Shown: positions 13,663-61,162 of the stretch, piece by piece
How the letters are laid out: every line of letters starts with the position of its first letter
Numbering within the stretch: the stretch's first letter is position 1
Source of the DNA: Octopus vulgaris
Taxonomy: Eukaryota
Length of the DNA: 64,000 nt
Reading direction: 5' to 3'
NCBI GenBank assembly: GCA_951406725.2
Contig: OX597820.1
Span: forward strand, 33,480,001 to 33,544,000
Position numbers and translations under genes: made by a program
Notes under the pieces: model-generated
The model's input: the letters and a program-made list of their open reading frames with translations, nothing else
The model's database searches: none
Told to the model about the DNA's origin: nothing

Positions 13663-14017
13663 ATAACAAAGGAAATAAAGAAAATGCTGACAAAATAATT
13701 TAAGTAATTTAAGTAATTTAATTAGGTGAAAGTTCTTTTTACCGGTTGCGCATTTGTTATGCTTATCAAAAGATATTTTTTAAAGAGAAATAGAGTTCCT
13801 TTCTGATAGATGTTTTCCTCTTGTCTGACAAGAGGAAAACATCTATCAGAAAGGAACTCTATTTCTCTTTAAAAATATCTTTTGATAAGCATAACAAATG
13901 CGCAACCGGTAAAAAGAACTTTCACCTAATTAAATTACTTAAATTATTTTGTCAGCATTTTCTTTATTTCCTTTGTTATATATCACAACTCGTGTTCCAC
14001 ATCTCCTTTTTTAAATA
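13663..14017. mobile_element. Fold-back mini-PLE: ~160-bp near-perfect hairpin (centre 13826) plus a 34-bp tail, in (TA)n
   Basis: Arms 13663-13825 / 13827-13983; each arm carries a degenerate HHR (TTGATAA-gcat..atgc-GCAAC-cg-GTA, 13878-13917); tail resembles that of the 59193-61162 element. Confidence 0.8.
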
Positions 14018-15789
14018 ATATATATATATATATATATATATATATATATATATATATATATATATATATATATATATATATATATATATATATATATATA
14101 TATATATATATATATATATATATATATATGTGTGTATACGTGTGTGTGTTTGTATATACATATAAATATATATATACATTTATGTATGCATGTTGCATAT
14201 ATGCAAGTGTGTACGTGTGCAGCATATGCATATATATACGTCAAATTTTCTAGCATTTCCTATATCTGTGAAAATGTCTATTTCATGAGTGTTTATATCT
14301 TCCCTGATAAGATTGATGCTTAACTGACCATAATTCTTTTTGTTGGACGTATTTTGAATGCATCCATCAAAACATATATAGGAGATATGCAGATATAAAT
14401 GTTTTCATAGCAACCTGAGCGCTTGTCTCCTCTATCAATATTTCCTATTTTCTCTTAAATACGACTTACTTATCCCGAATCAAACCCCACACAAGGGTGA
14501 TCATTGTTTCCAAGGACACATAAGCAACATTTAGCTACGTTGTAATGATTGCCTTGGATCGTTCCTGTATATATATATATATATATATATATATATATAT
14601 ATATATATTGTTATATTTCGGAATGGTCATATTGCCAGTTTAGCCAATAAAAACACACGCACTATATATTTGGTGTTATTTTGCTTCAGTGATATTTATT
14701 TTTTACATTAATCTTAATCTTATTTCGGCCAAAGTTCTTTCGTCACACTCCTGTGACCGCCTCAGTGGTCCTTTGTTTTCTTCTCACTTACTTGTGTCTC
14801 TCCTTACTAACCGTCAGCCATTTTGTATTTCTATTGTATGTCTTCATTTGCGCATGCTTATATCTCTATGTGCGTCTATGTTTATTTAGTGTGTGTAGGG
14901 GGGATGCCTGTAATATTTGTATCTTCTGGTTATATACATTCTTGTAATTTGTATTTTGTTTTTGTTGTTGTTGCTTTTGTTCTAATTTTGTTCATGTGTT
15001 TACATCCACCCATTATTATCATTACATATGCTTGTATGTATGTATAACAACAATATTAGTAATAATAATAATAAATCTAATCGAAAAAAAAAAAAAAAAA
15101 AAAAGAATATACATATACATATATATATATACATACATATACATATACATATACATATATATGCATATATACACACATATATACACATATAGATATTCAT
15201 TTCTATTTCTTTAATTACCTGTGTATTTATTATGTTTGCAGGATCCACTATTGTCATATGTTGTGGTGTGCGCTATTGCTCCATTCTAGTTTTCTATTCA
15301 GGCTAGGTTTATTTTCTATTATATGTGTAGCTTCTGTAATTTGTCTAATTGTTGCATCTGTTCTATGTGTGGACAATATCTTAATCTCTATGTTATTGAT
15401 TGATCCCCCGTGTTCTTGTTCGGCGTGTTGGTACAGAATCGATGAGCTTTTACCTTCCTTGAGTTGTCTCCAATGTTCATTCACCCGCTCACCAATGCTT
15501 CTTGCAGTTTCCCCACGTATGTTACTGTCTTGTTACTGCATCGTCCCTCTATACATCTTATACTATAGACCACATTTCTGGCTTTACAGTTCGTTTGTGG
15601 GCTAAATCTACATACAGTGCAATAGTTATCCGTACAGAGAGTTCTACTAAAAGGATAGCTTCTACCAATTATAGATCTGATAGGGTTGCCTGGCTTTTCA
15701 ACAACCTTAATTCTTAGTTTAAGTTTATCTAGGGTCCTTCTAAAGTGGTACGCTAGTTCACCTCCAGGGGTGGTGTCAACGAACATGAC

Positions 15790-16742
15790 ATGACATGGCT
15801 AGAAATTGTGAAAAATAAAACCCAAATCCTTCATTCATACTATGCAAAACCTATGGCCTCAAAATACCTGATCCACCGGAACTCAGCCATTGCGGGCAAT
15901 GCCAAATTCAATATTTTGATGGCAGACCTCGTCAGAATAATGAGAAATGTGTCACGCATGTGCGAGCCTACAGAATTAAAGAGACACATACAGTATTTCA
16001 TTCACCGCATGCAGTTTTCAGGTTACAGCCATAAAGAAAGGATCAGAGTATACAAAGGAGCCATGAAGAAATTTGATAATATATTATGTAATGATAGGAA
16101 TGGGATTTGCCCACTCTATAGGAACAAGTCATGGAACACTATAGAAAGGACAAAAAAAAAATAGGGAAGGCCAACTCTTGGTATGATAGCCATAAATACC
16201 AGAGTGTCATGTTCGTTGACACCACCCCTGGAGGTGAACTAGCGTACCACTTTAGAAGGACCCTAGATAAACTTAAACTAAGAATTAAGGTTGTTGAAAA
16301 GCCAGGCAACCCTATCAGATCTATAATTGGTAGAAGCTATCCTTTTAGTAGAACTCTCTGTACGGATAACTATTGCACTGTATGTAGATTTAGCCCACAA
16401 ACGAACTGTAAAGCCAGAAATGTGGTCTATAGTATAAGATGTATAGAGGGACGATGCAGTAACAAGACAGTAACATACGTGGGGGAAACTGCAAGAAGCA
16501 TTGGTGAGCGGGTGAATGAACATTGGAGACAACTCAAGGAAGGTAAAAGCTCATCGATTCTGTACCAACACGCCGAACAAGAACACGGGGGATCAATCAA
16601 TAACATAGAGATTAAGATATTGTCCACACATAGAACAGATGCAACAATTAGACAAATTACAGAAGCTACACATATAATAGAAAATAAACCTAGCCTGAAT
16701 AGAAAACTAGAATGGAGCAATAGCGCACACCACAACATATGA
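15790..16742 (+). pseudogene. 5'-truncated PLE ORF: RT thumb, Cys-rich linker and GIY-YIG endonuclease (Nematis-like by motif)
   Basis: YYAKPMAS..SGYS..PLYR, frameshift in the poly-A at ~16155, C..C..C..C linker, NVVYSIRC..TYVGET.RS..ERVNEH, RQITEA..LNRKLEW. Confidence 0.9.
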
Positions 16743-58440: not shown

Positions 58441-59192
58441 ATTTGCGACGTGTAACTACGATATAATAGACATATAAGTCGACGAGCTGGCAGAATTGTT
58501 AGCACGCCGGAATAAATGCTTAGCGGTCTTTACGTTCTGAGTTCAAATTCTGTCGTGGTTGTCTTTGTCTTTTATACTTTCGGGATCGATAAAATACGCA
58601 CCAATTGAACACTGGGGTCGATGTTATCCACTTCACCCCTTGCCCCGAAATTGCAGGCCTTGTGCCAAAAATCTGAAATCAATATTATATTGGTATTTGC
58701 TGAACAATTGTGCATACATGTGTGTGTGTGTGTACTGGCATTGTGATTTTAAATTGCATCCAGGAATGGGGTTTTATTGTTTCCAAGTCTGTCTGCCCCT
58801 GCAAGGGTCCCAGCTATGGTTAATAAGCATACTAGGGCTTATATACCGACGCATGTGACAATTCGATCCGGCGAACTCCGCGGGTTGAACGCAATGTGAA
58901 GCGCAGAAGGTAAGATGAGGCAAGTAAGACATCATTGTAATCTATTGCATCCGTAACTATCCCCTGTAGTCTTCGGGTCGGTTTCTAACCTAGATCCAAG
59001 GCTAGAATTCAAACAACGTCAACAGGATATTTTAGCATGTATGTATGTATGTATGTATGTATGTATGTATGTATGTATGTATGTATTTGTGTATGTACGT
59101 ACTTATAACATGTAGACATCTACCGGGTAACTGATTTCCAGCACAATGTATGTATGTATATATATATATATATATATATATATATATATATA

Positions 59193-61162
59193 TGTATAAG
59201 GGTGAAAAGGAACACACGAGTTGATATATATGAAAAAACAAGTCAAAATAGAAAATGCTAAAATAATTTTATAGTGAACATTTCAGTACCGGTTTCGGTC
59301 ATTTTGAGACCTTTTCAACTGTAACGATTAAATAATTAAATTTAGAAAAATTAGAAGAAAAGTTTTTTTAAAGGAATATTTCTATAGTAGTGTTCAGATA
59401 TAAGTGGCATTCTGCCTTTCTCTGACTCCCTTGTTTGCACTTGTGTGTTCGAGGTCGTTGTGAGTTCTTGGTAGGGTAGAAGAAGAAGAAGGCTGATGAG
59501 GAGAGGGGGTGGGAAAATCTGGGAGTGCCCTGATGGTCGTATTTTGAATGGTCAGTGGCGGCTAGCAGTCGCAGAAGGCTTGTTTATGGAATTTGCGTAG
59601 GTGTTATACTAAAAAACATTAGTGACAAAGTTAAGGGGTAGAAGGTGGAGAAGTAGAAGAAGAAGAAGAAGAAGAAGAAGAAGAAGAAGAAGAAGAAGAA
59701 GGAGAAGAAGAAGAAGAAGAAGAAGAAGAAGAAGAAGATGACGATGTTGATGAAGAAGAAGAAGAAGGAGAAGGAGAAGATGATGATGATGATGATGATG
59801 GTGGTGATGATGATGACGACGATGATGATGATAATGATGATGATGAAGAAGAAGAGGAAGAAGAAGAAAAGAAACAGAGAAGGGAGAATATGAATGGGTG
59901 AAAGTAGTGAGGTGTTGTATGACTTGAAGTTGGCATGTTATGGAGTATAGCTGTGATTGGGGCTGATTAGTAATGGATTCTTTGGAATGTAATATTTGTG
60001 TGTGTATATATTTCTTTTATTCTAAAGTTGAGGTATATTAATTGTTTGTCGTAGACCCGTTAAGAAGTGGCCTGTATTTTGTAATAAAGAGAGTTTCTTT
60101 ACTTATTCGTTGTCTCGAGGTTGTATCGTCCCTAAATTGGTAGAGGGAGAAAATCCTGAATTCTTTTTTGATGCGGTGTGGTAGTTCGTTGGCGTGATTC
60201 TCTAGCCAGAATTGGATTGCCTCTAGTCCTAGGTTGTGGGGGATATTCGAGACAACGAATAAGTAAAGAAACTCTCTTTATTACAAAATACACGCCACTT
60301 CTTAACGGGTCTACGACAAACAATTAATATACCTCAACTTTAGAATAAAAGAAATATATACACACACAAATATTACATTCCAAAGAATCCATTACTAATC
60401 AGCCCCAATCACAGCTATATTCCATAACATACCAACTTCAAGTCATACAACACCTCACTACTTTCACCCATTCATATTCTCCCTTCTCTGTTTTATTCTT
60501 CTTCTTCCTCTTCTTCTTCATCATCATCATTATCATCATCATCGTCGTCATCATCATCACCACCATCATCATCATCATCATCTTCTCCTTCTCCTTCTTC
60601 TTCTTCTTCTTCTTCTTCTTCTTCTTCATCATCATCTTCGTCTTCTTCTTCTTCTTCTTCTTCTTCTTCTTCTTCTCCTTCTTCTTCTTCTTCTTCTTCT
60701 TCTTCTACTTCTCCACCTTCTACCCCTTAACTTTATCACTAATGTTTTTTAGTATAACACCTACGCAAATTCCATAAACAAGCCTTTCAATAGAAATATT
60801 CTCCTGAATTGAACTGCGACTGCTAGCCGCCACTGACCATTCAAAATACGACCATCAGGGCACTCCCAGATTTTCCCACCCCTCTCCTCATCAGCCTTCT
60901 TCTTCTTCTACCCTACCAAGAACTCACAACGACCTCGAACACACAAGTGCAAACAAGGGAGTCAGAGAAAGGCAGAATGCCACTTATATCTGAACACTAC
61001 TATAGAAATATTCCTTTAAAAAAACTTTTCTTCTAATTTTTCTAAATTTAATTATTTAATCGTTACAGTTGAAAAGGTCTCAAAATGACAGAAACCGGTA
61101 CTGAAATGTTCACTATAAAATTATTTTAGTATTTTCTATTTTGACTTGTTTTTTCATATATA
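59193..61162. mobile_element. Palindromic, internally deleted Penelope-like element C (~0.9-kb arms, ~130-bp spacer, ~30-bp tail on the left)
   Basis: ~59225-60118 is the reverse complement of 60247-~61162; minus-strand spacer/arm reads NIPHNLGLEAIQFWL..RIKKEF (RT) fused to RIFSLYQF..QRISKETLFITKYRPLLN (GIY-YIG end); (TA)n flanks. Confidence 0.88.
59284..59321 (-). ncRNA. Minimal hammerhead with U3-A8 covariant core; mirror copy at 61066-61103 (+)
   Basis: rc cag-TTGAAAA-ggtctcaaaatgacc-GAAAC-cg-GTA-ctg. Confidence 0.65.

Follow-up and report, generated by a model that had tools for sequence, protein, structure and literature searches.

One-tailed palindromic insertions of Penelope-like elements in TA repeats of Octopus vulgaris and their probable origin from two separately primed cDNAs

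The window analyzed here, a stretch of 64,000 nucleotides from Octopus vulgaris (GenBank assembly GCA_951406725.2, contig OX597820.1, positions 33,480,001 to 33,544,000 of the forward strand), contains five inserts of Penelope-like elements (PLEs), here designated A to E, as are their families. Each insert is an inverted pair of arms located between (TA)n runs, the 3' ends of both arms point outward, and exactly one arm of each insert carries an additional 3' tail (Table 1). This layout had been proposed in an initial annotation of the window, and self-BLAST of the window together with direct reading of the sequence confirmed that all five pairs are real.

Table 1. Features of the five inserts (positions in the window; pLTR stands for pseudo-long terminal repeat; ORF for open reading frame; RT for reverse transcriptase; EN for endonuclease; UTR for untranslated region)
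Feature	Position	Strand	Remark
Empty site paralogous to that of insert A	6304..7117	+	uninterrupted TA run 6651-6725
Insert D, whole	13664-14017		
Insert D, left arm (tail-less pLTR end)	13664..13825	-	5' end coincides with the fixed site of the family
Insert D, right arm with ~35-nt tail	13827..14017	+	1-nt palindrome centre at 13826
Insert D, hammerhead-like variant	~13879-13917	+	U3-A8 type, weak stem I
Insert A, whole	14605-17448		
Insert A, left arm, shorter, no tail	14605..15790	-	
Insert A, junction with 5-nt filler	15791..15795	+	duplicates left-arm end; compared with full-length copy L167
Insert A, right arm, longer	15796..17392	+	RT thumb end, CX4CxxC linker, GIY-YIG, 3' UTR/pLTR
Insert A, GIY-YIG-bearing ORF in right arm	16122-16742	+	
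Insert A, variant hammerhead-like motif	~17230-17272	+	
Insert A, tail, 56 nt	17393..17448	+	part of the ORF's first codons
Insert E, whole	29344-29674		
Insert E, left arm without tail	29344..29447	-	downstream of the family's hammerhead; Hydra-like family
Insert E, right arm with ~135-nt tail	29446..29674	+	
Insert B, whole	42572-48841		
Insert B, tail, ~119 nt, on shorter arm	42572..42690	-	
Insert B, left arm, shorter	42686..45507	-	1-nt junction overlap
Insert B, left-arm canonical hammerhead	42805-42727	-	long stem II
Insert B, right arm, longer, no tail	45507..48841	+	RT thumb, N-rich inserts, CxCX5C linker, GIY-YIG
Insert B, right-arm ORF end	47232	+	3' UTR of 1.6 kb
Insert B, right-arm hammerhead	48727-48805	+	
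Insert C, whole	59194-61157		
Insert C, tail, ~38 nt, on longer arm	59194..59232	-	
Insert C, left arm, longer	59232..60246	-	3' UTR, EN end, then RT region
Insert C, left-arm hammerhead variant	59318-59287	-	U3-A8
Insert C, right arm, shorter, no tail	60247..61157	+	Neptune-like family

The arms of insert A match over 1190 bp with 99.7% identity and those of insert B over 2824 bp with 99.6% identity; the arms of insert C (~1000 bp, 92.7% identity) differ mainly in the length of microsatellites, and inserts D and E have short arms of ~160 bp and ~100 bp, respectively. In A and C, it is the longer arm that carries the tail. In the left arm of insert C, the sequence jumps by ~1.2 kb from the EN end to the RT region via a 3-nt microhomology. 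A unique spacer between the arms had been regarded as part of the layout; in A to C this 'spacer' is the 5' part of the longer arm, which in C includes the jump just described, and since the centre spans 1 nt in insert D and ~8 nt in insert E, it is not a general feature. The TA run of the empty paralogous site is uninterrupted, indicating that the TA run predates insert A.

Judged by sequence, all five inserts are EN+ PLEs whose GIY-YIG endonuclease is C-terminal. RT followed by GIY-YIG is encoded by long genomic copies of families A (loci L167 and L154), B (L196) and C (L236), and the PLE coding capacity of D and E was seen in partial ORFs and in their similarity to C and B, respectively. 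As the GIY-YIG domain follows the RT in all five families, a Naiad-like member, which had been suggested for the window, was rejected. A Pfam search matched PF01541 in A only, with an E-value of 0.00088 that lies below the curated cut-off, and a search with the thumb of A and the B fragment found no family. The proteins of D and C are ~70% identical and those of E and B 35-56%, E also having the CxCX5C and CxxC motifs; between A and C, identity is limited to ~27-30% within two short blocks, and comparison of the B protein with A and C gave no match. The CX4CxxC linker ahead of the C-terminal GIY-YIG in A, C and D is of the Neptune/Nematis CX2-5CxxC type, and on this basis C and D are tentatively classified as Neptune-like and A as Neptune/Nematis-like; the narrower labels, 'Neptune-like' in the case of C and D and 'Nematis-like' in that of A, partly follow the initial annotation and are provisional. 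A motif scan of B identified RWK, DKT, the CxCX5C linker, and CxxC and CxH close to the C-terminal end, which are the Hydra motifs given by Craig et al. (2021; PMC8557442), while a CX2-5CxxC linker is absent; B and E are classified as Hydra-like from motifs and similarity. Partial tandems are present at L167, L190, L195, L237 and L308/L309, where the tail runs on into the element body. L308/L309 (G000:C2:37617253-37627838) is a 10.6-kb family B palindrome, both arms of which contain a full unit and a partial second one, with a single outer tail. Family D was also considered as a self-propagating miniature inverted-repeat transposable element (MITE); this was rejected because its junctions vary by locus and longer coding copies exist.

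How common the two-ended layout is was estimated from samples of one 2.8-Gb assembly. Similarity-ranked sets comprised the best 40 of 1672 (A), 1407 (B), 2934 (C), 749 (D) and 181 (E) candidates, with the window copies excluded, and are biased to long and young arms. In these sets, 34/34 A inserts were two-ended, as were 27/36 of B (one further locus with an N gap was dropped), 16/35 of C (besides 2 internal inversions and 17 single copies; L237, the upstream half of a tandem, was dropped), 20/27 of D (27 of ~36 loci examined) and at least 9/28 of E (28 of ~38 loci examined), the copies of which are older and carry secondary insertions. The value for A is similarity-ranked and requires a 400-nt arm and was therefore rejected as a genome-wide rate. 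Position-ordered sets consisted of the first 100 of 3293 (A), 1072 (B) and 2012 (C) exact 21-mer matches and were counted by eye. They contained head-to-head pairs at 23/75 A loci, 40/58 B loci and 18 of ~81 C loci, with 81 head-to-head pairs versus 1 tail-to-tail pair among the 300 matches. The first 20 of the 52 unpaired A loci comprised 6 with an inverted arm, 6 with a tail-only stub, 6 single copies and 2 ambiguous cases, which gives an estimated two-ended share of ~72%, or ~52% if stubs are left out. Seventeen unpaired B loci viewed at 4 kb comprised 2 two-ended inserts, 1 internal inversion, 13 single copies and 1 ambiguous case, and the eighteenth, L205, is single; overall, 42/58 B loci (about 72%) are two-ended. 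Furthermore, 18 tight D pairs were found in the first 100 of 257 pattern matches. The proposal that the palindrome is the dominant product thus stands for A, B and D, in which it is the majority product; dominance in C and E is not supported by the counts. By extrapolation, A, B and C alone would account for ~1,500 palindromes in the genome, which may be a source of double-stranded RNA if they are transcribed. Single-arm copies are mostly tail-less (C, 15 versus 2; B, 7 versus 2 in the ranked and 9 versus 5 in the position-ordered set), which suggests that the cDNA from the tail site fails more often than the other one.

Two alternative explanations fit less well. An assembly or read fold-back artefact, for which the error-rich appearance of the left arm of L179 could be cited, is extremely improbable: the palindromes stop at element ends and have different left and right flanks, point changes and unequal repeat lengths distinguish the arms, each locus has a junction of its own, only one side carries the tail, and other species have been reported to show this layout. 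Two independent insertions into the same TA run, later homogenised by gene conversion, are probably true for a few loci such as L246, which has tail-less and discordant arms, and L291, where B abuts an A end; as a general explanation, however, this is very improbable, since it predicts neither the orientation of 81 versus 1 nor TA-free direct junctions, the 34/34 inverted inserts among young A copies or the presence of one tail per insert. At L291 (G000:C1:41912309-41912380), a tailed end of family B and an end of family A that lacks the tail lie head-to-head within a single TA run, which probably represents an insertion of B into a stub of A, a mixed event being possible.

Exactly one tail was found in 102 of the 104 evaluable two-ended inserts of the similarity-ranked sets (binomial test against 0.5, p = 5e-28) and in another 15/15 from the position-ordered samples, that is, in 117/119 altogether; L175, L235 and L280, which have a truncated outer end, were set aside, and L179 was counted despite its degraded tail. 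The exceptions are L246, which lacks a tail on either arm, and L255. A single tail on either arm, together with all junction results described below, would also be obtained if priming began at the tail end on both strands and one tail were subsequently trimmed by the endonuclease during resolution, corresponding to the 'EN-mediated resolution' mentioned in PMC8557442, and PMC11167929 (Frangieh et al. 2024) cites earlier work according to which recognition by the Penelope endonuclease depends on the tail. We nevertheless consider this unlikely, as two RT start sites at the borders of the tail were seen directly in vitro in the latter study, and the tail-less ends are sharp and adjoin UA-rich RNA that is able to pair with a TA primer.

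The tail is not tied to arm length. With the window copies included, the tailed arm is the longer, the shorter or an equal one in 14, 15 and 5 inserts of A and in 15, 13 and 0 inserts of B. This bears on a cDNA fold-back or a self-priming antisense template, in which the second arm is copied from the first one, as proposed for Adineta vaga Penelope by Arkhipova et al. (2013; PMC3846280). Such copying accounts for near-identical arms with shared private variants and for palindromic junctions, and small hairpin-like fillers are present at L298 and L271. However, a copy cannot hold sequence that its template lacks, and the tail on the shorter arm in 15/34 A and 13/28 B inserts therefore contradicts the simple form, which would need a separate removal of the tail from the long arm. 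In addition, tail-only stubs exist, and D centres of 0-1 nt are too tight for a hairpin loop and natural for two annealed molecules; taken together, we regard copying of one arm from the other as improbable. The stubs face a tail-less arm at the 6/20 unpaired A loci mentioned above, at L248 and L251 of C and at several E loci; as they are identified by their tail, they only test whether the opposite arm is tail-less. Four of the A loci (L272, L286, L287 and L289) have the stub and the tail-less arm joined at one and the same A/T-rich match, ~50 nt from the end. The family A stub L288 lies outside TA sequence and has an apparent target duplication of 12 bp, and at L271 and L239 an inverted copy of flanking target DNA lies beside the TA run at the edge of the insert, which resembles a snap-back of the target end.

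The junctions and the sequence shared by both arms provide further information. Among the filler-free junctions, 13/33 show a microhomology of at least 3 nt, compared to 5.9% in simulations (p = 2e-8); this count leaves out filler-containing junctions as well as four complex ones in C. Fillers, some of them visibly templated, are present at 13/30 A and 10/22 B junctions, and several D junctions have a centre of 0-1 nt. Joining by microhomology, as initially envisaged, is thus supported by the enrichment; however, the example given for it, a match between the arms of insert A at 15784-15795, was rejected because its last five nucleotides are the filler listed in Table 1. In A, arms within 60 nt of equal length occur in 6/34 inserts, where shuffling predicts 1.6 (p = 0.004), and the correlation of arm lengths across the family is not significant (Spearman 0.27, p = 0.12). 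In family D, 23/27 loci have an arm whose end lies at one common site, and long copies have a TATA-like box, a putative promoter motif, 30 nt upstream; the fixed site is likely a transcription start. Fixed 5' ends were not established in A, B and C. Concordance of the arms was scored at minor alleles shared with other loci, with L179 left out, and amounted to 26/27 in A and 52/54 in B (78/81 jointly), compared to an agreement between loci of 79/964 and 336/3629 (8-9%), respectively. The arms of the tail-less L246 are discordant (0/5 sites), as expected from two separate templates.

Each insert would thus consist, as we think probable from the sequence patterns and by analogy with characterized systems, of two cDNAs of one RNA, each initiated on a different strand of a cut (TA)n target and the two then united in head-to-head orientation. 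The observations behind this are the outward 3' ends, the one tail, the independent 5' truncation of each arm, the shared parental alleles and the microhomology or filler at the joint. Opposite-strand cDNAs united by end joining had already been proposed in the initial annotation and fit the genome sample best; its proposal of priming from the 3' ends of the RNA is contradicted by the two internal start sites observed in vitro (PMC11167929), and the self-complementarity of (TA)n, which had been invoked as well, is not required, since the same layout occurs at a non-TA site with a 9-bp target-site duplication according to PMC3846280. In the proposed sequence of events, both protomers would use a single pLTR-ORF junction, one of them starting at its upstream, tail-less site and the other one at its downstream site, which includes the tail, so that exactly one tail would result. 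Each RT would then stop independently, or both would run off the common 5' end of the RNA; the free 3' ends of the cDNAs would anneal over 1-8 nt and be sealed by host microhomology-mediated end joining. Failure of one cDNA would leave a single copy or a tail-only stub.

Several observations weigh against this two-cDNA model or limit it. Allele concordance is weaker in C (14/22, L246 accounting for five of the eight mismatches), it amounts to 1/6 in D, where most sites are CpG and uninformative, and 2/4 sites are discordant at L207 of B; moreover, concordant arms could also be explained by two RNAs of one source locus or by later gene conversion. In L107, L222, L234 and L298 the inverted piece falls short of the 3' end, and L255 bears a full tail on one arm and a partial tail on the other. 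Single copies are frequent (17/35 in C and 14/58 in B), and a long-arm template upstream of the pLTR-ORF junction would need a putative tandem or circular RNA. Finally, PMC11167929 reports no difference in start sites between the strands, coordination being outside its tests. A more specific version of the two-cDNA model is coordinated twin priming, in which a dimer would engage the pLTR-ORF junction of a single RNA in one binding event and make one cDNA per start site and strand, with the one-tailed palindrome as default product. Single copies would then be failed halves, short pLTR-only hairpins would reflect cDNAs that ran off where transcription had started, and long arms would require a tandem or circular template. 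This version is offered tentatively, and we give it slightly less than an even chance; if true, one rule would cover tail, inversion and partial tandem across Hydra- and Neptune/Nematis-type clades.

The hammerhead motifs of the inserts (Table 1) were considered as determinants of the shorter end. A type I hammerhead descriptor was matched by B and by the left arm of C and not by the variants of A and D; a canonical hammerhead was identified by eye in the family of E. An Rfam scan of the window showed no hammerhead among the 150 matches listed of 156, the listed ones being sub-threshold miRNA and snoRNA matches to repeats or hairpins, and when four hammerhead regions were folded, their z-scores (-0.3 to -1.7) were not significant. 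The predicted cut is located upstream of the tail-less end, by ~38 nt in B, 60 nt in C and 120 nt in E; hence, the predicted cut does not define that end and was rejected as the origin of the short end. Very short B hairpins (L310, L294 and two more pairs on C2) have their joints in the stem III/cut region of the hammerhead, 36-45 nt from the tail-less end.

Other TA-flanked sequences are found in the window. A hammerhead-bearing non-coding insert at 40935-41625, bounded by (TA)n runs, is arranged as a partial tandem in direct orientation, with a canonical hammerhead core and long stem II at 41298-41358; it is retrozyme-like and constitutes a non-inverted counter-example. A lone TA-flanked stub at 41651-41967 has a hammerhead-like motif on the minus strand (41923-41875), and the TA-flanked, tail-less sequence at 38987-39450 with symmetric inverted ends of 114 bp resembles a DNA-transposon MITE rather than a PLE. 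Additional short hairpins are located at 27750-27929, 28287-28376 and 30258-30323. The regions 3542-4467, 7531-10421, 18162-21680, 55188-56521 and 61713-63382 contain what we take to be decayed ORFs of mariner-like, RTE-like, other LINE and Gypsy-like elements.

During LINE-1 twin priming, both target strands prime on one RNA and microhomology joins the cDNAs, resulting in a 5' inversion; the second primer anneals upstream, so that the inverted piece is a different stretch of the element. In contrast, nearly all two-ended inserts studied here have arms that overlap because each begins at the 3' end, L107 being the exception, and L1-type twin priming, with an upstream inverted segment that is not duplicated, was rejected as a description of them. 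At L107/L260, L107 resembles classical L1-type twin priming. A literature search found no count of tails per insert and no application of twin priming to PLEs; subscription papers may contain such.

The architecture itself has already been described, and the inserts are members of known PLE clades; what is new is the genome sampling and the quantitative rule. In PMC8557442, inverted 5'-truncated copies, a tail often present at one end only and TA targets are reported, the mechanism is left undefined, and the origin of inverted repeats and tails is stated to be open; tails are 30-40 bp there, compared to ~119-135 nt in B and E, and frequencies of the layout, which are provided here as counts, are absent from the sections consulted. 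Insert B is similar to the Hydra-clade PLEs of that study in its motifs, canonical hammerhead and TA targets, and E is its relative; however, the former are generally <3 kb, whereas B reaches ~4.7 kb with N-rich inserts and a 3' UTR of 1.6 kb. Adineta vaga Penelope, as described in PMC3846280, has head-to-head pLTRs with an optional single tail and palindromic junctions like the inserts studied here, and asparagine-rich ORF inserts as found in A and B. Self-priming on an antisense template is the published genomic model, whereas the counts obtained here favor two separately primed cDNAs: one tail in 117/119 inserts, tails on the short arm in about half of the cases and arms from the same parent argue against a simple fold-back. 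For Poseidon PAc, PMC11167929 shows that both strands are cut and extended in vitro and that reverse transcription begins at two internal RNA sites, which delimit the tail, without need for a hammerhead cut; a dimer is predicted. Inverted products, and the question whether each strand has a start site of its own, are not addressed in its main text, and the counts obtained here provide a sharp prediction for this existing in vitro system.

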